Shown here: piece by piece, positions 2,930 through 56,886 of the stretch
How positions within the stretch are numbered: the first letter of the stretch is position 1
Layout of the letters: the number at the start of each line of letters is the position of its first letter
Assembly (NCBI GenBank): GCA_029261065.1
Contig: JAJDCB010000030.1
Coordinates: 324,876 to 388,875 of the forward strand
Direction of reading: 5' to 3'
Source: Candidatus Omnitrophota bacterium
GTDB taxonomy: Bacteria > Omnitrophota > Gorgyraeia > Zapsychrales > Zapsychraceae
DNA length: 64,000 nt
Translations under genes and position numbers: made by a program
Notes under the pieces: generated by a model
What the model saw: only the letters and a program-made list of their open reading frames with translations
Told to the model about the DNA's origin: nothing
The model's database searches: none

Positions 2930-3130
2930 GATGTCAATTATTCTATTTTGGTCCTCGTAATGTGTCAGAGCAAAGAGGATAAAAGGAAATCCTGTGAAAG
3001 TCAGGAGCAGTCCCGCTACTGTAACTTGTGATATTTTTACAAGAAGTCAGAACACTGCCAAAATAGTTATTCAGTATTTCTCGCGTGAGACGAGGGTTAT
3101 TGAGCATATATTTTGGGAATAAGAAAGAGG
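2930..3130 (+). promoter_or_regulatory. cobalamin (adenosylcobalamin) riboswitch aptamer
   Basis: AAGGAAATCCTGTGAAAGTCAGGAGCAGTCCCGCTACTGTAAC matches the cobalamin-riboswitch core consensus, including a B12-box-like CCCGCtACTGTAA (GGTGAAAnTCC...GAGC.G.CCCGCCACTGTAA in the consensus). A second ACACTGCCA element lies downstream. It sits upstream of a BtuB-like receptor. Confidence 0.6.
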
Positions 3131-5263: not shown

Positions 5264-5274
5264 TTTGAAGGCAC

Positions 5275-5420
5275 GAGCATCGATTGGTGGTCATTAGCAA
5301 GAGCACTGATTAGTGGTCGCTTCAAGACCACCGATTAGTGGTCACTAGCAAGATCACCGATTGGTGGTCGCTAGCAAGAGCACTGATTGGTGTTCGCTTC
5401 AAGACCACCAATTGGTGATC
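5275..5420. repeat. tandem array of about 6 copies of a 26-bp unit (CACYGATTRGTGGTCRCTWSCAAGAS), each with a short palindrome (CACCGATTGGTG)
   Basis: Seen directly, immediately downstream of the btuB stop. Confidence 0.7.
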
Positions 5421-7450: not shown

Positions 7451-7460
7451 GGGTTTTAGA

Positions 7461-7642
7461 GCAAGAATAACCAAGTTACAAGAGACAAGGTACAAAAAAG
7501 AAACAAAAATCAATAACCAATTAACCAAACAGTTTGATTATTGGGTTATTGTGAATTGGTTATTTTTTGCCTTTGCGTCTAGAGACGCAGGTCACGGCCA
7601 AAGGCCGTGATATCTTGTACCTTGTAACTTGGTTATTCTTGC
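7461..7642. mobile_element. MITE-like element, copy A (182 bp) with perfect 22-bp terminal inverted repeats GCAAGAATAACCAAGTTACAAG
   Basis: Seen directly. Internal palindromes GCGTCTAGAGACGC and CACGGCCAAAGGCCGTG. Homologous copies at 15320, 41793 and 53507. Confidence 0.75.
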
Positions 7643-7665
7643 TCGTTATTCAAACTAGGATAATT

Positions 7666-8455: not shown

Positions 8456-9436
8456 ATGGCTGTACGCACAAAAATTCTATGTCTTTTTATTATTTCATTA
8501 ATCACACTTATGATAGCCCCTTTGTTAGGGGCGAAGTTGATAGGGTTTAGTGATATTTTTGACGCGTCAAAAAACAATATTGATTCAGATGTGTTTTGGC
8601 AGATGCGTTTGCCGCGTGTATTAGTTGCCTTTATGGCTGGGGCTATATTTGCATTAAGCGGCATGGTCTTTCAGGCGTTGTTTCGCAATCCTTTGGTATC
8701 ACCTTTTACGTTAGGCGTGTCCGCCGGAGCTTCTTTCGGCGCATCCGTTTATATTTGGTTAGGTTTGGCGGTAAGCTTTTTAGGGATATCAGGCATATCA
8801 TTATTTTCTTTTTGTGGTGCGATGTTATCGATTGTTATTGTGTGGTCCTTAGCCAAGATGAAGGGAGGAACATCGGTAGCCACGATGTTGTTAGCCGGGG
8901 TTGCTGTTAGTTTCTTTTTTGGAAGTTTAATCTTATTCGTTCAATATTTAAGTGGCGTGGTGGAAGCCTTTAAAATTTCTCGGTGGTTAATGGGTGGTTT
9001 ATTTGTTTTTGGATATAAACCCGTTTTTGACATTCTACCCTTTGCCTTAATTGGTTTATGTTCTGTTTGGTACTTTACACATGAGTTAAATATTTTTACA
9101 ACAGGTGAAGAATTAGCCATCGCGCGTGGCGTGGATGTTGAGCGCACGGTCAAAATATTATTCTTTCTAATCTCCATCATGATCGGTGGCGTTGTCTCGG
9201 TCTGCGGCCCCATTGCCTTCATCGGCATCATCGCCCCCCACATCTGCCGCCTCATCGTAGGCCCCGATCACCGCTATCTCACGCCCGCCACATTTCTTTT
9301 CGGCGGCCTCTTCCTAACCATCTGCGACGCCCTATCCCGATCCCTCATAGCCCCCGCCGAAATCCCTGTAGGCATCATCACAGCCTTGCTTGGCGGTCCG
9401 TTTTTTTTGTGGTTGTTGGTTAAAAAAAGCTTATGA
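8456..9436 (+). CDS. btuC: ABC importer permease, FecCD/BtuC family
   Basis: About 10 TM helices and FecCD-family conserved blocks. ATG lies immediately after the btuD stop, with an AGGTGGGTG RBS. Confidence 0.75.
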   Translation: MAVRTKILCLFIISLITLMIAPLLGAKLIGFSDIFDASKNNIDSDVFWQMRLPRVLVAFMAGAIFALSGMVFQALFRNPLVSPFTLGVSAGASFGASVYIWLGLAVSFLGISGISLFSFCGAMLSIVIVWSLAKMKGGTSVATMLLAGVAVSFFFGSLILFVQYLSGVVEAFKISRWLMGGLFVFGYKPVFDILPFALIGLCSVWYFTHELNIFTTGEELAIARGVDVERTVKILFFLISIMIGGVVSVCGPIAFIGIIAPHICRLIVGPDHRYLTPATFLFGGLFLTICDALSRSLIAPAEIPVGIITALLGGPFFLWLLVKKSL

Positions 9437-9439
9437 TAT

Positions 9440-9540
9440 TATACCTTAAAGGGTATATTATAAGATAAATTATACCTTAATGGGGATAATTTATATGAAA
9501 TATACTTGAAATTATACCCGATTGGTGTTATATTTATATT
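9440..9540 (+). promoter_or_regulatory. HipB-operator-like palindromes (ATACC-N6-GGTAT and TATACC-N7-GGATAA) upstream of hipB
   Basis: Seen directly. Resembles the TATCC-N8-GGATA HipB operators (established for E. coli HipB). Confidence 0.3.
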
Positions 9541-9543
9541 GTT

Positions 9544-9777
9544 ATGGATGACAAAATACGAATAATAGATGGTGAGCCTATCTCTTTGCAAATAAAGAGT
9601 TTAAGAATGAAAAGTGGCTTAACTCAAGTTGAGTTTGCTAAACGGGTTGGGGTGGGCTTACGGTTTTTACGAGAGCTTGAGCAAGGGAAGACTACGGTAA
9701 GAATGGATAAGCTTGTACAGGTTTTGGATTTCTTAGGCTATCATTTAGATTTAAAGAAAAATGAACCGCAATATTAA
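9544..9777 (+). CDS. hipB: HipB-like XRE-family helix-turn-helix regulator
   Basis: 77-aa HTH protein (LTQVEFAKRVGV). First gene of a three-gene module. Confidence 0.7.
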   Translation: MDDKIRIIDGEPISLQIKSLRMKSGLTQVEFAKRVGVGLRFLRELEQGKTTVRMDKLVQVLDFLGYHLDLKKNEPQY

Positions 9778-9785
9778 AGGAAAAG

Positions 9786-10127
9786 GTGCTTATGAAGGTG
9801 TTAAGAAAAGCAAATGTTTTTTATATTAATGAATTGGCGGGGCATCTTACAGAGACTTCAGAAGGGTACATTTTTCAATACGATTCTAGCTTTTTAAAAA
9901 AGAATATCCCCATCTCTTTGACCTTACCTCCAAGGGAAGAGGCTTATGAATCAAAAGAATTATTTTTGTTTTTTAAAGGTCTTTTACCAGAAGGGTGGTA
10001 TTTGGATATCGTGAGTGCCACACAAAAAGTGGATAGCCAGGATTCATTTGGGGTCTTATTAGCTACGGCGAGTGTTGATACTATAGGTGCGGTTACGGTA
10101 AGGAAGGTCGATATTACAAATGAATGA
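9786..10127 (+). CDS. hipS: HipS-like protein (stand-alone HipA N-terminal subdomain)
   Basis: 113-aa protein between the HTH gene and the kinase gene, overlapping the kinase gene by 8 nt. Matches the HipB-HipS-HipT tripartite arrangement. Confidence 0.55.
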   Translation: MLMKVLRKANVFYINELAGHLTETSEGYIFQYDSSFLKKNIPISLTLPPREEAYESKELFLFFKGLLPEGWYLDIVSATQKVDSQDSFGVLLATASVDTIGAVTVRKVDITNE

Positions 10128-10983
10128 GAAATTTTTAAAAAAGATGTTTAATTCAACACGAACGCCGATAATAAATTTTGGTTTAGCCGATTTATCTCAA
10201 CAAGCGCAAAGATTAGCTGGAAAACTGTCCATCTCGGGTGTTCAGCCAAAATTATCCGTTAAGTTGGATAAAAAAAGTAATGAGTTAATTGTTGTTAATG
10301 ATGGGGGCGAATATATATTAAAACCACAAATCGCGACCTTCACGCATATTCCTGAGAATGAACAGTGTTGTATGGATATAGCAGAGAAGTTGGGTATTGA
10401 TATTCCTCTACATTGTTTGTTACCTTTAAAAGATAAAAGCTTTGCCTATGTCGTTAAAAGATTTGATCGAGATAAGGGTACAAAAATTCATCAAGAAGAT
10501 TTTGCGCAATTGCTTGAGCAAAATGATAAGTATAAAGGGTCTGTAGAGCATATTGGTCGAAAGTTAAAAGATATATCCTCAATTCCAGGTTATGATCTCC
10601 AATTGTTTTTTGAAAGGGTTGTCCTTAATTTTATCCTCGGGAATGGTGATGCCCATCTAAAAAATTATTCTATGTTATATAAAGATGGTAACACTCGATT
10701 AACTCCTGCCTATGATATTGTTTGTTCAAAGTTAGTTATCCCCGAGGAAGAAGACTCGGCCTTAACCATTAATGGTAAAAAGAATAATTTAAAAAGGGAT
10801 GATTTTGAGAAGTTAGCTGAGTATTTCAATATTCCTACGAAGGTTCGGTATGAAAAGTTTGAAGGAAAACTTGATGTAATGAACCAATGTATTGAATCTT
10901 CAAATATGAGTCAGGACAAGCAAAAGCGGTTTATCGAGATTATAAATGAGAGATTAAGACGTTTGGAGTTATTAAAAAGATAG
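10120..10983 (+). CDS. hipT: HipT-like Ser/Thr kinase toxin (HipA C-terminal kinase core)
   Basis: HipA catalytic motif GNGDAHLKNYS. Gly-rich loop SISGVQPKLS. Confidence 0.65.
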   Translation: MNEKFLKKMFNSTRTPIINFGLADLSQQAQRLAGKLSISGVQPKLSVKLDKKSNELIVVNDGGEYILKPQIATFTHIPENEQCCMDIAEKLGIDIPLHCLLPLKDKSFAYVVKRFDRDKGTKIHQEDFAQLLEQNDKYKGSVEHIGRKLKDISSIPGYDLQLFFERVVLNFILGNGDAHLKNYSMLYKDGNTRLTPAYDIVCSKLVIPEEEDSALTINGKKNNLKRDDFEKLAEYFNIPTKVRYEKFEGKLDVMNQCIESSNMSQDKQKRFIEIINERLRRLELLKR

Positions 10984-11090
10984 CAGGCGGTATATTTAAT
11001 AAAAGAAAATAGAATAAAAGAAAGAAATGTGAAGCTTTAGGTTTATCTGTTAATTTGATTTAATAAATTGTCTTTTTTGCCATCTCCACC

Positions 11091-11186
11091 CTCCTCATAG
11101 CCCCCGCCGAAATCCCCGTAGGCATCATTAAAGCTTTACTTGGGGGACCATTCTTCTTGTGGTTACTGGTGAAGAAGCGGTTATAA
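11091..11186 (+). repeat. duplicated copy 2 of the btuC 3' end (about 96 bp, about 85% identical, reading frame partly intact)
   Basis: Seen directly. CTCATAGCCCCCGCCGAAATCCCcGTAGGCATCAT...TTGTGGTT aligns with 9343-9436. Confidence 0.8.
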
Positions 11187-11285
11187 TTTCTCATAGTTAA
11201 TAATAATTGATAGTGTTTGGAAAAAGAGACAAATCATTGTAAACTTGTATTAATTATTCAAATTACATGAAATGGAGGAGAAGCT

Positions 11286-11507
11286 ATGACGACAAAAGAA
11301 ATTGAAAAAAGCGCATTGAAATTAAAGCCTCTTGAAAAAATTAAACTTGTCGATAAGTTATTAATTAGTCTAGATAAGCCCAATCCGGATATTGAACGGT
11401 TATGGCTAAAAGAGGCTGAATCTAGAGTTGATGCCTATGAGAAGGGTGAATTAAAAACTTCATCTTATGAAACAGTTAAAAAAAATACTAAAAGACGTAA
11501 AAAATGA
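11286..11507 (+). CDS. antitoxin of a ParE/RelE-type module (putative addiction-module component)
   Basis: 73 aa, charged C-terminus. Overlaps the downstream toxin gene by 4 nt (ATGA). Confidence 0.5.
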   Translation: MTTKEIEKSALKLKPLEKIKLVDKLLISLDKPNPDIERLWLKEAESRVDAYEKGELKTSSYETVKKNTKRRKK

Positions 11508-11797
11508 AAGTGTATCTTACTCTATTATCCAAAAAAGAATATCAAGAGGCTGTAGCGTATTATGACGAACAGAGTAGAGTGGTGGGAGATAAATTTATAG
11601 CTGAGGTTGAGGAGGCGATTGATTTGATTCGGTATTATGGGTTAGCATGGCCAAAAGTAACAAAGAATTTACGTAGATATGTCTTAAAGCGATTTCCTTA
11701 TATGATGTTGTACAAAATATATAAAGATCGAATCGTTATTTTTGCTATTGCCCATCAACATCGACATCCAAGTTATTACTTAAAGAGAACTTCTTAG
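11504..11797 (+). CDS. ParE/RelE-family toxin (plasmid stabilisation system protein)
   Basis: 97 aa. C-terminal H/R-rich region (AHQHRHPSYYLKR) typical of the ParE/RelE fold. Forms an operon with the upstream small gene. Confidence 0.55.
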   Translation: MKVYLTLLSKKEYQEAVAYYDEQSRVVGDKFIAEVEEAIDLIRYYGLAWPKVTKNLRRYVLKRFPYMMLYKIYKDRIVIFAIAHQHRHPSYYLKRTS

Positions 11798-11884
11798 AAT
11801 TGGCTGACACCTTTATTTTTTTGATTGATGTATGTAATATTTATGTTGCACTTGTAACATGAATGTTACAAGTCGGAAGCTACC

Positions 11885-11952
11885 TTCATCGCGCCCCCCG
11901 AAATCCCCGTAGGTATCGTTACGTCCTTGCTTGGAAAAGATTATAACTTCTG
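11885..11952 (+). repeat. duplicated copy 3 of the btuC 3' end (degenerate), preceded by the hairpin CTTGTAACAT-GAA-TGTTACAAG
   Basis: Seen directly. CCCCCCGAAATCCCCGTAGGTATCGTT...CTTGCTTGG aligns with copies 1 and 2. Confidence 0.7.
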
Positions 11953-12235
11953 AATTTTGACAAGGACATCTTTTATGACATATCTAGCATATAATTGTGT
12001 TATTTAATGATAAAAATATCATAAATTTCTGATTTCTCTTCCTTAATTATCCTACTTAAAATCATTTCATTTAACTATTCTAAGGATTTTAATCTCAAGA
12101 AAGAAAAAAGTCATCAAATAGCACCCTCACCCTATTGTGGTTTAATTTTGAGCTGTTTTAATTCGAAATTAATTATGATTCGGAGGAAAAAAGTAAACTA
12201 TTGAAATCACTAAAGTTAATTATTAAAGGAAAAAA

Positions 12236-12817
12236 ATGAAAAATTTGTTTTTTATTTTATTATTTGGTTTTTTTAGTTTAAGTGTATCCAATGTGTTTGC
12301 TGCGGTTATCGATGACAATGTTGTTTTAAATGCGTTTCGTATTGCCGTTGATGGACACCATTCGATTTTAAAAATGAAAGATGGTGTTGTTGACGTTTTT
12401 AAAGATAAAAGTGGGATTGATAAAGAAAGTTCGTTTAATCTTAATTATAACGCAGCAAGATCCGGAAATTCTTCCGCTTATTATTCTCCAGCAGTAAATA
12501 GCGATATGGTATTAATTTCTCAAACATTTCATGCCAGATCAAATGTTTCTAAGGCTCGAGTAATAGTTTTTATGGAAGATATCGATAGTGTTACTGAAGG
12601 CATAGATATAAAAGTTTATGTTAGTCGAGATGACACTTTTACCTGGGATAAAATTCCAACATTAACAGATGGTGGAGATTACGATCATGGAAAAAGAATG
12701 ATTTCTGGTAATATCACGGCTTTTACAAGTTCTGCTAATAATAAAATGGTTTTTAAGATTGAAACAGCCAAATCCAAAAATATGAAAATTTATGGAGTTG
12801 GTTTTTCTTGGGAATAA
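12236..12817 (+). CDS. secreted hypothetical protein (signal peptide, beta-rich)
   Basis: N-terminal signal peptide ending NVFA-A. RBS AAAGGA. Confidence 0.5.
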   Translation: MKNLFFILLFGFFSLSVSNVFAAVIDDNVVLNAFRIAVDGHHSILKMKDGVVDVFKDKSGIDKESSFNLNYNAARSGNSSAYYSPAVNSDMVLISQTFHARSNVSKARVIVFMEDIDSVTEGIDIKVYVSRDDTFTWDKIPTLTDGGDYDHGKRMISGNITAFTSSANNKMVFKIETAKSKNMKIYGVGFSWE

Positions 12818-12920
12818 TGTTGGTGTGTAAGCCAATTAAAAAGAAAGGAGGCAAGGAAAGATAAAGAAGGATCTTTAAAAAAGAAATCAAATTATAACTA
12901 AACAGAAAGGATTAGCAACA

Positions 12921-13442
12921 ATGAAAAAGTTTTTTATTTCTTTATTAGCTTTAGCGATTATTGGTAATGCTGGAAATCTTTTTGCTGCTGGTGATGCAAG
13001 AGGAGGGGCAGTTATTCCTCATGTACTATATAGGAATGTGTCTGCCTCTGAACGAATGGTACCAGCATATTTTATCTCAAATATTACTGCGGCAACTATA
13101 ACAGTAAGAATTAGGTTTTATGATAAGGCTGGAGCATTGATAACAGATGATGGTGTGGCAACATCTGGAACTATTCGCGGGACAAATGTTTCTAGTTATG
13201 ATGATAATATAACGGGGACTCCTGCTTCTGTTGAATTTGATTTAGGTGCAAATGATACAGGCTTTATTCAACTATTAGGTACTTCAACGACAGATTATGG
13301 CTACGCTGTTATTGATTGGGAACAATTAGACAGTGATGTAACAGTAGGTTTGGTTGCTCATGGATATGTAGATAGTATAATTAGTGCAGACACAACATAT
13401 TGGCGTTATGCTATACCAATTAATGGCGGGCTTCCATTCTAA
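12921..13442 (+). CDS. secreted hypothetical protein (signal peptide), possible distant paralogue of the previous gene
   Basis: Signal peptide ending NLFA-A. Gly/Thr/Asp-rich beta-type composition. Confidence 0.5.
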   Translation: MKKFFISLLALAIIGNAGNLFAAGDARGGAVIPHVLYRNVSASERMVPAYFISNITAATITVRIRFYDKAGALITDDGVATSGTIRGTNVSSYDDNITGTPASVEFDLGANDTGFIQLLGTSTTDYGYAVIDWEQLDSDVTVGLVAHGYVDSIISADTTYWRYAIPINGGLPF

Positions 13443-13468
13443 ATTGTAAAATGGCAAATTGATGAAAC

Positions 13469-13504
13469 AAGGCAAACCTGTTAGGTTTGCCTTGTTTTTT
13501 TATT
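13469..13504 (+). terminator. rho-independent terminator
   Basis: Stem CAAGGCAAACC / GGTTTGCCTTG followed by a T-run of 8 or more. Confidence 0.7.
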
Positions 13505-14318: not shown

Positions 14319-15320
14319 ATGCAAAGAAACAAGGTTCTCGTTACAGGTGGAGCCGGTTTTATTGGAAGTCATGTGGTTGATCGACTGTTACAGGATCACC
14401 ATCAGATAACTGTTATTGATAATTTCTCGACGGGAAGACAGGCAAATCTTAATCATCTTAAAAGTAACCCTAATCTAACCATTATTGAAGCCGATATTCG
14501 CGATTTAGCTTCAATTGCGCCTCATTTTCAAAACATCGATATGGTTTTTCATCTAGCGGCATTAGCCGATATCGTACCCTCCATTGTTAATCCAACAGAA
14601 TATTATTCAGCCAATGTTATGGGATCTATGAATGTCCTTGAAGCTTCCCGGCAAGCAGGTGTTAAGCGTTTTGTTTATACCGCATCGTCTTCCTGTTATG
14701 GCATTCCAGATGAAACCGTAGCCACCAAAGAAACTCAAAGTATTGATACGCAATATCCGTATGCATTAACAAAATATATTGGCGAAGAAACCGCTTTTCA
14801 TTGGGCGAACATTTATGATCTACCTCTTGTGTCTTTAAGACTGTTTAATGTTTATGGTCCTCGTTCACGCACATCTGGAACGTATGGGGCTGTGTTTGGT
14901 GTGTTCTTGGCGCAAAAATTAAGTAATAAGCCGTTCACGGTTGTGGGTGATGGTGAACAGACGCGAGATTTTATTTTTGTCACGGATGTTGCTAACGCTT
15001 TTGTGACAGCCGCGTATTCTGAGGTTACCAACGAAGCTTTTAACGTAGGAACAGGAAAACCACAAAGTGTGAATAAGTTGGTGTCGCTTCTTGGTGGAGA
15101 AAAAATTCATATTCCCAAAAGACCTGGGGAACCAGATTGCACGTGGGCCGATATTACAAAGATTAAAAATCAACTGAGTTGGGCGCCGCAGGTTTCGTTT
15201 GAAGAGGGTGTGGGGGAGATTTTAAAAAATATTGATTATTGGAAGGATGCACCGGTTTGGACACCTGAGGCAATTGGAGAAGCTACGGAAGATTGGTTTA
15301 AGTATTTAGGGAAGAGTTAG
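14319..15320 (+). CDS. UDP-glucuronate decarboxylase (UXS/ArnA C-terminal-like) extended SDR
   Basis: VLVTGGAGFIGSHVVDRLL...VIDNFSTGRQANL closely resembles the UXS N-terminus. YxxxK motif present (YALTK). Confidence 0.6.
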   Translation: MQRNKVLVTGGAGFIGSHVVDRLLQDHHQITVIDNFSTGRQANLNHLKSNPNLTIIEADIRDLASIAPHFQNIDMVFHLAALADIVPSIVNPTEYYSANVMGSMNVLEASRQAGVKRFVYTASSSCYGIPDETVATKETQSIDTQYPYALTKYIGEETAFHWANIYDLPLVSLRLFNVYGPRSRTSGTYGAVFGVFLAQKLSNKPFTVVGDGEQTRDFIFVTDVANAFVTAAYSEVTNEAFNVGTGKPQSVNKLVSLLGGEKIHIPKRPGEPDCTWADITKIKNQLSWAPQVSFEEGVGEILKNIDYWKDAPVWTPEAIGEATEDWFKYLGKS

Positions 15321-15536
15321 CAAGAATAACCAAGTTACAAGATACAAGGTATCCCGCCGTCGGCGGGACCCCGCCAACGGCGGGGCAAAAAAGATACAAA
15401 AACCAATTACGGAACAACCAAACAGTTTGGTTATTTAGTTATTGGTGAATTGGTTATTTTTTGCCTTTGCGTCTAGAGACGCAGGTCACGGCCGAAGGCC
15501 GTGATATCTTGTAACTTGTACCTTGGTTATTCTTGC
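15320..15536. mobile_element. MITE-like element, copy B (217 bp), same TIRs plus a GC-rich hairpin insert (CCCGCCGTCGGCGGG / CCCCGCCAACGGCGGGG)
   Basis: Seen directly. Confidence 0.75.
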
Positions 15537-23684: not shown

Positions 23685-23790
23685 TCCCGAATTGTCATTC
23701 CCGTGAAAGCGGGAATCTATACGGAGCGATTAATATATTTTAGTTCATAGTTTTACTATTTTGAGGTTCCCGCTTTCGCGGGAATGACAA
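23685..23790. repeat. dRS3-like units (TGTCATTCCCGTGAAAGCGGGAATC and inverted GGTTCCCGCTTTCGCGGGAATGACA)
   Basis: Seen directly. Confidence 0.7.
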
Positions 23791-23823
23791 TATTATTAGT
23801 TAACAATTATTGAGAGATATCCC

Positions 23824-41792: not shown

Positions 41793-41956
41793 CAAGAATA
41801 ACCAAGTTTATTCTGTTGTTTGATTTTTCTCATTTTGTTTCTTGATTATTTTTTGCCAGGCATCCAGAGATGCCGGTCCCAACCAAAGGTTGGGATATCT
41901 TGCCCCGCTTTTGGCGGGGTCACGCCGAAGGCGGGATACCTTGTACCTTGGTTATT
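41793..41956. mobile_element. MITE-like element, copy C (degenerate, about 164 bp) with a GC-rich hairpin
   Basis: Seen directly. GCAAGAATAACCAAGTT...CCTTGGTTATTC. Confidence 0.6.
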
Positions 41957-53506: not shown

Positions 53507-53655
53507 AAGATACAAGTTACAAGACACAAGATACAAAAAAATATCAATGTTCAAGGTCCAATAACCAAAAAGGCTATCGTCAAGAAATTGTTTGGAATTT
53601 TTATTTTGTGAATTGTTTCTTTTTTGTATCTTGTGTCTTGTAACTTGGTTATTTT
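53507..53655. mobile_element. MITE-like element, copy D (degenerate; GTTACAAGACACAAGATACAAAAAA ... TTTTTTGTATCTTGTGTCTTGTAACTTGGTTATT)
   Basis: Seen directly. It separates the hisF-like and hisH-like genes. Confidence 0.55.
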
Positions 53656-53699: not shown

Positions 53700-54404
53700 A
53701 TGTCTGAGAAACGAGATCAGTATGTAGCTATTATTGATTATAAGATGGGTAATCTATTTAGTGTTAAGCAAGCTTGTGAGCAAGTTGGTATTAAGGCTAT
53801 TGTTACAGAAAAAAAAGAAGAGATTCTTAATGCTTCTGGGCTGATATTGCCTGGCGTCGGAGGTTTTGGTGATGCCATGCAACATTTAAGGGATCTAGAT
53901 TTAATTGAGGTGATCAGAGATGAGATTGCTGCTGGCAAACCTTTGTTAGGGATTTGTTTAGGGTTACAGTTGCTTATGTCTGAGAGCGAAGAATTTGGAT
54001 CCCATGAGGGGCTTGGATTAATTGAGGGAAAGGTTAAAAAATTTAAATTAGAAAATAGTGAAGGTCGGGTGAGTAAAGTTCCTCAAGTGGGCTGGAATCA
54101 GATTGCTAGTGTACGGACAAAACAAGAATTACATTGGAATCAAACGCCATTGCAACATATTAAGGAAGATGATTATTTGTATTTTGTGCATTCTTATTTT
54201 GTTGAACCTACGTTAAGTGATGTTGTTTTATCTCAAAGCACATACGAGGGAGTGTCATTTTGTTCTAGCGTTTTAAAAGATAATATATTTGCTGTTCAAT
54301 TTCATCCTGAGAAGAGTGCCTCTGTTGGGCTTCAGATCTATAAGAATTGGTTTACACAATTTTGTCAAGAACCTACAAATAAGGAGATGAGTCGTGTTTT
54401 TTAA
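53700..54404 (+). CDS. HisH-like class I glutamine amidotransferase (WbuY-like)
   Basis: Catalytic Cys block GICLGLQLL and the H-P-E triad region (QFHPEKS). Confidence 0.75.
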   Translation: MSEKRDQYVAIIDYKMGNLFSVKQACEQVGIKAIVTEKKEEILNASGLILPGVGGFGDAMQHLRDLDLIEVIRDEIAAGKPLLGICLGLQLLMSESEEFGSHEGLGLIEGKVKKFKLENSEGRVSKVPQVGWNQIASVRTKQELHWNQTPLQHIKEDDYLYFVHSYFVEPTLSDVVLSQSTYEGVSFCSSVLKDNIFAVQFHPEKSASVGLQIYKNWFTQFCQEPTNKEMSRVF

Positions 54405-56886
54405 TAAAACGTTAGATAAGTATATGTCCCAGAAAGTTACAGATGTTAAATTTTGCAAGAAATGCGTCGTCTCTAATCAAAGACCTCGAATCAATCTTGA
54501 TGAAGATGGTGTGTGTAGTGCCTGCCGTTTTGCTCATCAGAAACATAACAAGATTGATTGGGCTTCGCGTGAAAAAGATTTGATTGAGTTATTAGATCAA
54601 TATAGATCTAAAGATGGGAGCTATGATTGTATTGTTCCTGTCAGCGGTGGAAAAGATAGTGGTTATGTGGCGCATCAACTTAAATTCAAATATGGGATGC
54701 ATCCTTTGACTGTGACTTGGGCTCCGTTTTTGTATACGGATATTGGATGGCAAAATTATATTAGTTTTAAAGACACTGGTTTTGATAATGTGCTTTGTTT
54801 TCCTAATGGAAAGATACATCGCAAGTTATCACGTCTAAGCTTTGAACTTGTAGGTGACGCTTGGGAGCCTTTTGCGTATGGACAAAAAGCTTATGCTTTT
54901 CAAATTGCTGTTAAGTTTAAAATTCCTCTTATTTTTTATGGAGAAAGTGGTGAGGTTGAATATGGGGGTTCTGTTAAGAATATAGACAAACCTTCTGAAG
55001 GAATTACTGATTGGAAAAACTTTTATTATAAGGGATCAAGTTTGGACGAGATTGCCAAGCATGGTTTAGAGTGTGGTTTTTTAACGGAAGAAGAAGTTAA
55101 AGATAAATCATTCGAGTTTTATAATCCTCCTAATATGGAAGAGGTTGAGAAAATTGGTGCGCAGATGCATTGGTTTTCTTTTTACAAAAAATGGGTTCCT
55201 CAAGAAAATTATTATTATGCCGTGGAGCATTTAGCGTTCCAAGCTAATCCTGGACGATCTGAAGGGACATATTCGAAATATGCAAGCTTAGATGATAAAA
55301 CAGATGGTTTTCACTATTATTTGGGTTATATCAAGCACGGATTAGGAAGAACGACATCTGATGCTGCCCATGAAATTCGAGATGGCCATTTAACAAGAGA
55401 AGAGGGTGTTGCTCTTGTGCAAAGATACGATGGAGAGTTTCCGAAAAAATATTTTAAAGAGTTTTTAGAATATTTGGAAATTGATGAATACCAATTTAAT
55501 GAAGTGATTGATTTTTATAGAAATATGTCGCCTCATCTTTGGAAAAAAGAAGATGGTGTTTGGAAATTGACGCATCAAGTCACGGATTTAAATGTTAAAC
55601 GTGAAAAAATTGAAGTTCAACCGGAGGTTAAGTCCGTTGAAGTTAAAGCATCCAATGAGAAAATTTTCTCAAAACATGGATTACCGGAAAAGGTTATTTT
55701 TTGTAAAAGTTGTGTCATGTCGAATCAGCGTCCCGCATCTAGTGTTGAATTTAAACATAAGGTCACGCATAAACATCGCGCCTTAAGGATTAACGATGAA
55801 GGAATTTGCGATGCTTGCCAATATGCTCGGCAAAAAGATAAGATTCAATGGAAAAAAAGAGAAGATGAACTGCTTCAATTGTTGGATAAACATCGTCGGA
55901 CTGATGGACAATATGATTGTATTGTTCCTGGTAGCGGGGGGAAAGATAGTTGTTATGCTTCCCATATTTTAAAATACAAATATGGCATGCATCCTTTAAC
56001 GATCACATGGCCACCTATTTTGTATACCGATATTGGATACAAAAATTTTCGAAATTGGATTAGTGTCGGGGGATTTGACAATATCTCTTTTAATTATAAC
56101 GGTAAAAATCATGCGTTATTAACTAAATTAGCTATTCAGAATTTGTTACATCCTTTTCAACCGTTCATTTTAGGTCAGAAAAATCTTGCTCCAAAGATTG
56201 CGATTAAGTATGACGTGCCGCTTATTTTTTACGGAGAAAATGAAGCGGAATATGGTAACCCAATCGCGGATAATGTCTCCTCTATGCGAGATAAATCTTA
56301 TTACACGATGTCGAATTTGGATGAAGTCTTTTTGGGTGGGGTTTCTGTAAAGGAGTTGATGGAAAAATATGGATTATCCTATCATGATGTGCAAACATAT
56401 TTGCCCGCCGATCATCAGGAGATTCAACGTTCGAAGACGGAGGTTCATTATCTTGGTTATTATTTAAAATGGACCCCTCAAGAATCTTATTATTACGCTG
56501 TGGAACATACGGGATTTGAAGCGAATCCTGTAAGGACAGAAGGGACTTACAGCAAATATAATAGTCTTGATGATAAAATCGATGGCCTACATTATTATAC
56601 GACATTTGTAAAGTTTGGTTTGGGTCGGGCCACTTATGATGCTTCACAAGAGATTAGAAATAAACATTTAACGCGTGAAGAGGGGATGGCTCTTGTTAAG
56701 AGGTTTGATGGAGAGTTTCCCGAACGTTATTTTAAAGAAGTGATGGATTTCATTGGAATGAGCGAAGATGAATTTAGAAATAATTGTGATAGATTTCGTT
56801 CGCCTCATTTATGGGAAAAACAAGCGGGAAGTTGGAAATTAAGAAATTCTATCTATGAACAATCAGATCAACTTGTTTTAGGATGA
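54394..56886 (+). CDS. tandem-duplicated, fused N-acetyl-sugar amidotransferase (two WbuX-like PP-loop modules in one 830-aa protein)
   Basis: Two internal repeats, each with a Cys-rich N-terminus (CKKCVVSNQRP...CSAC; CKSCVMSNQRP...CDAC) and a PP-loop (VPVSGGKDSGY; VPGSGGKDSCY). GTG start with an AAGGAG RBS. Confidence 0.7.
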   Translation: MFFNKTLDKYMSQKVTDVKFCKKCVVSNQRPRINLDEDGVCSACRFAHQKHNKIDWASREKDLIELLDQYRSKDGSYDCIVPVSGGKDSGYVAHQLKFKYGMHPLTVTWAPFLYTDIGWQNYISFKDTGFDNVLCFPNGKIHRKLSRLSFELVGDAWEPFAYGQKAYAFQIAVKFKIPLIFYGESGEVEYGGSVKNIDKPSEGITDWKNFYYKGSSLDEIAKHGLECGFLTEEEVKDKSFEFYNPPNMEEVEKIGAQMHWFSFYKKWVPQENYYYAVEHLAFQANPGRSEGTYSKYASLDDKTDGFHYYLGYIKHGLGRTTSDAAHEIRDGHLTREEGVALVQRYDGEFPKKYFKEFLEYLEIDEYQFNEVIDFYRNMSPHLWKKEDGVWKLTHQVTDLNVKREKIEVQPEVKSVEVKASNEKIFSKHGLPEKVIFCKSCVMSNQRPASSVEFKHKVTHKHRALRINDEGICDACQYARQKDKIQWKKREDELLQLLDKHRRTDGQYDCIVPGSGGKDSCYASHILKYKYGMHPLTITWPPILYTDIGYKNFRNWISVGGFDNISFNYNGKNHALLTKLAIQNLLHPFQPFILGQKNLAPKIAIKYDVPLIFYGENEAEYGNPIADNVSSMRDKSYYTMSNLDEVFLGGVSVKELMEKYGLSYHDVQTYLPADHQEIQRSKTEVHYLGYYLKWTPQESYYYAVEHTGFEANPVRTEGTYSKYNSLDDKIDGLHYYTTFVKFGLGRATYDASQEIRNKHLTREEGMALVKRFDGEFPERYFKEVMDFIGMSEDEFRNNCDRFRSPHLWEKQAGSWKLRNSIYEQSDQLVLG

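Follow-up and report, generated by a model that had tools for sequence, protein, structure and literature searches.

The window described here is a stretch of 64,000 nucleotides (nt) from a Candidatus Omnitrophota bacterium (assembly GCA_029261065.1, contig JAJDCB010000030.1, positions 324,876 to 388,875 of the forward strand). It contains btuC, a gene for a FecCD/BtuC-type ABC permease, and the last ~95 nt of this gene are present three times, all in direct orientation. A putative HipBST toxin-antitoxin module lies between copies 1 and 2, and an antitoxin-ParE pair between copies 2 and 3. The evidence supports the extra copies as displaced or replacement gene ends, and not as chance matches or simple decaying duplicates; the array has thus grown by two successive insertions at one site. 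The locus is an accretion site with replacement gene ends and two delimited cassettes, a type of phenomenon that is already known. As to how the cassettes arrived, a route without a recombinase, of the type called insertion with long target duplication, is given a probability of roughly 0.45.

Structure of the array

The genes, repeat copies, riboswitch, GC-rich patch, operators and terminator described below are all on the forward strand. Copy 1 (9343..9436) is the working 3' end of btuC (8456..9436), inside the gene and through its TGA stop. Copy 2 (11079..11186) is a displaced btuC end that has no start codon and keeps an intact frame to a TAA stop. Its main match (11093-11186) is 81% identical to copy 1 over 95 nt and 88% identical over the first 52 nt, and a weak similarity reaches back to ~11079. 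Copy 3 (11881..11945) is the oldest and most decayed, with an internal gap of ~31 nt and a broken frame. Over the 52 nt of its core match (11883-11934) the identity is 81%; past the gap, a tail that can still be recognised, AAAAGATTATAA, extends to ~11945.

A model that read the letters of the window without database searches (the sequence-only reading) had proposed that the btuC 3' end occurs here three times. Alignment bears this out, at 9343-9436, 11093-11186 and 11881-11945, and confirms that the copies are real and related; for copy 2 the claim of a copy holds, and the claimed identity of ~85% is replaced by 81% over 95 nt. The btuC-end core of the repeats is CCGAAATCCCYGTAGG. A 24-nt degenerate core, CCCSCCGAAATCCCYGTAGGYATC, matches exactly three sites in the window, which are the three copies, and has no match in 100 dinucleotide-preserving shuffles. 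No fourth copy was found when the window was scanned with the degenerate core.

The inserts between the copies are 1.75 kb and 0.79 kb long, with repeats of 95 nt and ~62 nt, respectively. The two longest blocks of full identity between copies 1 and 2 measure 24 and 11 nt; those common to the three copies reach 16-17 nt. Within the gene end, the starting points of copies 2 and 3 almost coincide, and the left borders of the repeats agree within ~11 nt. The DNA just upstream of copy 2 and that just upstream of copy 3 show no mutual similarity.

Divergence of the gene ends

A comparison of copies 1 and 2 shows one difference in the 36 positions of the left part and 17 differences in the 58 positions of the right part (Fisher p=0.001). 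Fifteen of the 17 changed codons are synonymous or stop-to-stop changes and two are non-synonymous (P=4e-8 under random mutation); had copy 2 decayed freely while copy 1 stayed constrained, ~60% of the changes would be expected to be non-synonymous. Because the differences are almost all synonymous, the right part of copy 2 must have evolved for a long time as a functional btuC end. Copy 2 is a once-working gene end of another lineage than the present one, and the end that now stands on the HipBST side comes from a different lineage than copy 2. This coding-type divergence supports the footprint of replacement gene ends that had been suggested from the letters. The locus shares two features with elements that carry a replacement gene end, namely three co-oriented direct repeats made of the 3' end of the target gene, and a target kept intact by a foreign fragment with coding-type divergence. 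A third feature of such elements, a gene for a tyrosine or serine recombinase within the element, was not found. Copy 3 differs from copy 1 by six synonymous and four non-synonymous changes, in addition to the internal gap and a frameshift; it is an older, decaying copy. A reciprocal-mosaic test, which looked within the repeat for a change in the polarity of GC alleles, was suggestive at nt 58, at a level that is not significant (670 of 5000 permutations).

The same figures bear on de novo capture of a cassette at a staggered break, in which fill-in would leave two identical target copies that later change by mutation only. Free decay would not give 15 synonymous changes among 17 codons, and the contrast between 1/36 and 17/58 is not expected from uniform decay. 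Two random events within the same ~95 bp are also very unlikely. Although some of the related loci described below would suit it, this route is considered highly improbable for the array.

The 3' third of btuC carries a compositionally foreign, GC-rich patch (~9170..9400) that includes the left part of copy 1. Its G+C content is 0.55-0.62 against 0.37 for the window as a whole, and its GC3 is 0.7-0.87 against 0.2-0.4 upstream. The segment 9101-9425 is the sole one at the 150-nt scale in the 64 kb that has a G+C content of at least 52%, with GC3 in 46 of 58 codons. All three repeat copies are GC-rich in their first ~50 nt. The best nucleotide match of the patch (75%) is to L007, a metagenome-assembled genome (MAG) of the Akkermansiaceae, in which the region 3' of btuC is ordinary. 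No donor of the patch was identified, and no homologue was markedly closer in the C-terminal part. The patch may reflect an older exchange.

Gene content of the cassettes

The hipBST promoter/operator region (9438..9543) starts 2 nt after the btuC stop. It contains three TATACC-N6-GGTATA-like palindromes, direct repeats and a promoter-like site (9506-9534), and the operators are conserved in related cassettes. It is followed by hipB (9544-9777; HTH_3, PF01381), hipS (9792-10127; Couple_hipA, PF13657) and hipT (10120-10983; HipA_C, PF07804), whose consecutive open reading frames (ORFs) overlap or abut in one operon. On the basis of an HTH protein HipB, a small HipS resembling the N-terminal subdomain of HipA, and a kinase HipT resembling the C-terminal part of HipA, the region 9544..10983 is predicted to be a three-gene HipBST toxin-antitoxin module. 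The second cassette consists of an antitoxin (11286-11507; Unstab_antitox) and a ParE-family toxin (11504-11797; ParE_toxin). Pfam thus bears out both of the cassettes that had been named from the letters.

Beyond copy 3 lie two ORFs (12236-12817 and 12921-13442) with signal-peptide-like N-termini, as judged by reading the sequence, and with no Pfam match. They had been taken for a third cassette. Since there is no fourth repeat copy to close it, nothing delimits them as a cassette, and the repeats bracket two cassettes only. A strong intrinsic terminator (13464..13498), with a 16-bp stem followed by a T run and a folding z of -5.8, lies after the second signal-peptide gene, and closes the region as had been predicted.

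Related HipBST and ParE loci

Homologues of HipT with 64-79% identity abound in Omnitrophota, in neighbouring candidate phyla and in other MAGs. The upstream and downstream flanks of 58 usable HipBST loci, the window included, were compared with each other, using 609 windows of the same geometry in unrelated loci as controls. Flanking direct repeats of 31-204 nt, with 75-98% identity and a spacing of 1.6-2.75 kb, were found at 12 of the 58 loci, whereas one of the 609 control windows scored as high (Fisher p=7e-13). Each locus has a local sequence of its own as repeat; these are the 3' or 5' ends of genes, terminators and the end of a tRNA-Met gene. Across 13 loci, no k-mer or motif was shared by the repeats above control levels. 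Housekeeping genes surround the repeat-flanked cassettes, and no integrase recurs among them. At four loci (L083, L149, L144 and L127) both repeats lie at most 40 nt from a unit that extends from the hipB operators to the hipT stop, and these tight junctions indicate that the unit moves as such. The G+C content of the HipBST cassettes is 32-41% across host flanks of 34-51%; from this constancy the cassettes look horizontally mobile.

The closest HipT homologue on a long contig is found in L081, where a 1.94-kb cassette containing only HipBST is bordered by a complete tRNA-Met gene on one side and by an incomplete copy of that gene's 3' end on the other. This copy has a compensatory change in the T-stem, which indicates that the displaced tRNA end comes from a different working allele. 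This eno-divIC-tRNA-Met locus, which is conserved among Omnitrophota-like genomes, carries HipBST just after the tRNA at L081 (5044-7109), L087 (911-984), L088 (2894-2967) and L160 (2526-5127). At L083 the last 31 nt of dcd occur on both sides of the cassette, and the second copy remains in frame up to a stop codon. Codon differences between the repeats of other loci (eight synonymous and five non-synonymous at L144, three and none at L100) come from stretches too short to decide; the repeats of L127 and L083 are likewise too short for a decisive synonymous test.

As a side observation, the repeats of the window (9343-9351) and of L081 (5075-5084) both start with CTCATA(G/A)CC, which in L081 belongs to the anticodon loop of tRNA-Met. 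This likeness may be a coincidence, and it is missing from copy 3 of the window.

Near-identical repeats occur at L149 (98%), L127 (96%) and L090 (94%), as capture at a staggered break would produce. Insert ends that fall inside unrelated genes also suit such capture. One is the integrase fragment of L160; another is the insert end at L090 (3704-3972), which resembles the opening 24 codons of orfA from an IS3-type transposase (MRKRRTFTEEQKADAVNLIRTSGE), cut by the second repeat, a reading made from the letters alone.

The ParE toxin of the window has few relatives. A homologous ParE cassette is present at L166 (2222-3132), between repeats of ~52 nt that are 732 nt apart, and its region begins 5 nt after the stop of the upstream gene. 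The second repeat is followed by a 115-nt partial second copy of the cassette, and then by a DarT/Macro (DarTG-like) pair. The partial copy looks like a remnant of repeat-mediated tandem amplification.

The target gene

A fragment of btuC was found at none of the 85 other HipBST loci, and a second btuC end is absent from all 80 btuC loci of other species. The best btuC loci in the scan of the genome collection (these 80 loci) have 66-68% identity, and the nearest BtuC proteins, which are 66-71% identical, are labelled Candidatus Omnitrophota. In a search of 5.8 billion proteins, the source contig alone exceeded 71% BtuC identity, and no close relative was found. Scans of viral and metagenome contigs with the exact core pattern gave no match. 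Downstream of btuC, the nearest relatives have ordinary genes, e.g. cobalamin salvage genes in L003. The sequence-only reading had considered a recombination hotspot at the btuC end; with a single gene end at 80 of 80 loci and ordinary genes downstream in the closest ones, btuC is not supported as a general insertion hotspot. The determinant of mobility appears to be the cassettes rather than btuC, because relatives of HipBST and ParE sit between locus-specific repeats at many unrelated sites.

Proposed origin of the array

Under the favoured explanation, the locus would be a small toxin-antitoxin islet, formed when the last ~95 bp of btuC twice received a minimal addiction cassette: first the antitoxin-ParE pair and afterwards, adjoining the gene, HipBST. 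Both times a second btuC tail would have been brought in, which kept the permease complete, while the previous end was pushed downstream (copy 2, then copy 3). A cassette with its duplicated piece of the target could be carried over as an excised circle or along with adjoining DNA, and could re-enter a related genome through a Campbell-type single crossover within that piece, carried out by the homologous recombination of the host. Such spread would give two repeat copies of different lineage origin, and would stack cassettes in tandem where the site was already occupied. Repeat-flanked inserts are expected to be unstable; here the toxin would punish deletion from repeat to repeat, which may be the way in which such inserts persist.

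Several observations weigh against this explanation. Two different cassettes share a left border within ~11 nt, for which a defined att site would be the simpler account. The divergence of copy 2 calls for a donor in which HipBST stands beside a btuC end, and 0 of 85 loci show one. The identical blocks (24 and 11 nt; 16-17 nt) are short for RecA. Neither an empty site nor a circular form was seen, with the nearest BtuC just 71% identical. At L160 a truncated PF00589 integrase lies inside the repeat-flanked unit, between the repeat and hipB, and at L081 the cassette abuts a D5-type primase element at the tRNA-Met gene. Finally, the GC-rich patch starts 170 nt upstream of the repeat, and neither integration model explains it cleanly.

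Some of these observations favour a different origin, from decayed integrase-driven elements that carried a 3' fragment of btuC in their attP, integrated in tandem, and later lost their integrase and other genes in a streamlining of the type seen in cis-mobilizable elements (CIMEs); alternatively, an integrase encoded elsewhere in the genome mobilised the cassettes in trans. What is left today would be the addictive toxin-antitoxin modules and the att repeats. This is a real, if somewhat less probable, possibility. Replacement gene ends and tandem arrays are classically explained in this way (PMC7192596), and both the path from integration through decay to CIME and accretion (PMC5704250) and the streamlining to islets (PMC13617665) have been described. 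The near-identical start of copies 2 and 3 follows from it, and the shared left border is explained better than by insertion with long target duplication. The divergence of copy 2 from copy 1 as coding sequence also agrees with it, as do the presence of HipBST at tRNA-Met in L081, L087, L088 and L160, the integrase remnant of L160 and the primase element of L081. Against it stands the lack of an integrase in the 64 kb, and the arms on the element side, upstream of copies 2 and 3, are dissimilar. Chance deletions would seldom end so close to the operon that both repeats remain within 40 nt of it, as they do at four unrelated loci. The repeats at 13 loci have no common motif, and several are plain terminators. 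The repeat at L160 is not the tRNA att site. Insertion with long target duplication is kept as the favoured route, at the probability given above.

Searches for recombinases, folded sites and mobile repeats

No integrase, resolvase, recombinase or transposase was detected in the 64 kb when all ORFs of at least 120 amino acids (aa) and the small ORFs of the cassettes were searched with Pfam; the absence of an integrase had been correctly read from the letters. There is no tRNA gene in the window, and a tRNA as the target of insertion was ruled out.

The sequence-only reading had also raised an integron-like cargo site. In this case the repeats would be folded attC-type sites served by a distant IntI-like recombinase. 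The small size of the cassettes (0.7-1.75 kb), two of them with toxin-antitoxin modules, and their common orientation are what such a site would show. The repeats are, however, coding gene ends without attC-type folding: the copies fold no better than shuffled sequences (z of -0.37, +0.35 and -1.5). Reading of the repeats showed no GTTRRRY/RYYYAAC cores, no IntI or attI is present in the window, and the repeats at the other loci are unrelated local sequences. With folding z near 0, no IntI in the window and no motif across 13 loci, the integron-like site was rejected, and its probability is put close to nil.

A perfect hairpin with a 10-bp stem, CTTGTAACAT-GAA-TGTTACAAG, is located just before copy 3 (11851..11872). 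It was rejected as a terminator (no T run follows it) and as belonging to the ParE cassette (the related cassette of L166 lacks it). A link of its core with the terminal repeats of miniature inverted-repeat transposable elements (MITEs) had been proposed from the letters. This link is unsupported: the overlap is the single 8-mer GTTACAAG, in reversed order, as the MITEs read GTTACAAG...CTTGTAAC, and the hairpin has no terminal inverted repeats bounding a unit. The MITE-like family itself occupies intergenic gaps at 7459-7644, 15319-15536 and 53513-53653, with a partial copy at 41818-41950. Terminal inverted repeats of ~32 nt (GCAAGAATAACCAAGTTACAAG...) enclose a unit of 130-220 nt, and the copy at 15319 has an extra GC-rich hairpin of 34 nt. 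The 8-mer CTTGTAAC occurs 10 times, against 1.5 expected.

Comparison with known systems

Arrays of SCCmec and pseudo-SCC elements at the 3' end of rlmH/orfX are stacked in tandem with gene-end direct repeats, and some of their units have no recombinase of their own and rely on recombinases from elsewhere. SCC units are much larger than the cassettes described here, and they use Ccr serine recombinases with a defined short site. Both e14 and phage 21 restore icd with an attP-borne gene fragment.

Elements with attP-borne gene fragments can have repeat blocks of up to 250 bp at coding targets, e.g. icd, and can form tandem arrays (PMC7192596). Like these elements (icd, tRNA islands), the btuC locus has a replacement 3' end whose differences are mostly synonymous, and a displaced pseudo-end at the far junction. 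The elements carry an integrase and are 2-200 kb long, whereas the repeat-flanked units here contain only a toxin-antitoxin operon.

A course that leads from integration, through decay into a CIME, to accretion at a target gene's end has been described, as for ICESt1/ICESt3 at fda (PMC5704250). The btuC locus resembles this case in its att-like flanking of units without integration or transfer genes, in tandem stacking at a conserved gene end, and in the presence of a gene-end copy at each junction; its two repeat-bracketed cassettes lie in tandem and contain toxin-antitoxin genes only. It differs in that the 64 kb hold no integrase and no partner integrative and conjugative or integrative and mobilizable element in cis, so that the cognate integrase-bearing element needed for CIME-type mobilisation is absent from the window. 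The cassettes (0.8-1.75 kb) are also far smaller than CIMEs, and both the target gene btuC and the Omnitrophota-like phylum are new among described CIMEs.

Islets consisting of toxin-antitoxin genes only have been attributed to streamlining and to spread via homologous recombination at the core genes that flank them (Belot et al. 2026, PMC13617665). They are likewise compact, have no mobile-element genes, occupy small variable spots between core genes and are viewed as selfish modules. Replacement gene ends, which are central here, have no place in that model, and the term 'direct repeat' does not occur in the text of that paper (PMC13617665).

The closest parallel to the favoured route is found in restriction-modification units, which insert with long (>30 bp), variable target duplications and without any other mobile element (PMC2853133; PMC3874152). 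In Haemophilus, for example, repeats of 46 bp overlap gene 3' ends. A virus-like cycle through the repeats has been proposed for these units, with the mechanism not established (PMC2853133; PMC3874152). Long target duplication was described by Nobusato et al. 2000, as cited in PMC3874152, and by Furuta, Abe and Kobayashi 2010 (PMC2853133). The cassettes described here agree with the definition used in PMC2853133: each insert is a complete addiction unit of less than 20 kb, is flanked by a direct repeat of more than 30 bp, and has no other mobility gene. As for the restriction-modification units, the repeats are local and different at each site, at 12 HipBST loci and one ParE locus, and some of them overlap the 3' end of a neighbouring gene. 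Repeat-mediated amplification, proposed for restriction-modification units, has a counterpart in the remnant seen in L166.

There are also differences. The cargo here is a kinase or a ParE toxin and not a DNA-cutting enzyme, and the idea of a double-strand break put forward for restriction-modification units does therefore not transfer. The repeat copies in the window come from different lineages, and two cassettes have used one target. The restriction-modification family was defined by genome comparison, whereas here distant relatives show a single btuC end. In a literature search at the level of titles and abstracts, the signature of long target duplication was not found extended to toxin-antitoxin modules or to HipBST; PMC3874152, for one, cites it for restriction-modification units alone.

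Other features of the window

The window is AT-rich (mean G+C content 37%) and Omnitrophota-like. A cobalamin riboswitch (2932..3076; Rfam RF00174, 55 bits against a gathering score of 31.5) stands at the head of the operon that ends with btuC. The gene order, based on Pfam for the genes of the operon, is TonB receptor, o5626, btuF, btuD, btuC, and the same order upstream of btuC is common to the Omnitrophota loci L001-L003. The entire receptor-btuF-btuD-btuC operon is probably under B12 control, and the riboswitch supports naming the FecCD permease (PF01032, E=1e-87) btuC. A tandem repeat of 73 nt, 86% identical, is located directly after the TonB receptor gene (5271-5343 and 5348-5420). A direct repeat of 47 nt, 87% identical, connects two distant intergenic or gene-end regions (2677-2723 and 23751-23796).

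A MarR-like gene lies 3' of the array and is followed by ~50 kb of co-oriented genes (14319-63682) for sugar-nucleotide, nonulosonic-acid and sulfation functions, a set that represents a large cell-surface glycan cluster. The nonulosonic-acid genes are those for NeuB, UDP-GlcNAc 2-epimerase and a CMP transferase. The sulfation genes code for an ATP sulfurylase fused to a pyruvate-kinase barrel, an APS kinase, a sulfotransferase and a sulfatase. An ORF of 830 aa (54394-56886) has no Pfam match and contains internal repeats (54622-54757 and 55912-56047, 79%; 55188-55568 and 56466-56840, 68%).

Significance

The locus addresses the question of how toxin-antitoxin modules enter chromosomes without visible mobile elements. 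A wider proposal, which at present must be called doubtful, is that HipBST and ParE operons are autonomous mobile units in Omnitrophota and other uncultured phyla. They would insert at arbitrary sites with long target duplication, and would then use the duplicated segment as a portable homology arm for the recombination machinery of the host. If true, this would be the 'virus-like life cycle' that was proposed for restriction-modification units and never demonstrated, here with a cargo that does not cut DNA. Should the cassettes be streamlined integrative elements instead, the locus would be a further toxin-antitoxin islet, and would still record btuC as an integration target in a candidate phylum.

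The long target duplication of restriction-modification systems has lacked a mechanism since 2000. The example in the window is a clean tandem whose replacement gene end is demonstrably foreign, and the HipBST family adds a dozen or more natural replicates that are independent and differ in their targets. Taken together, they make homologous recombination, a trans-acting recombinase and break capture testable against each other.

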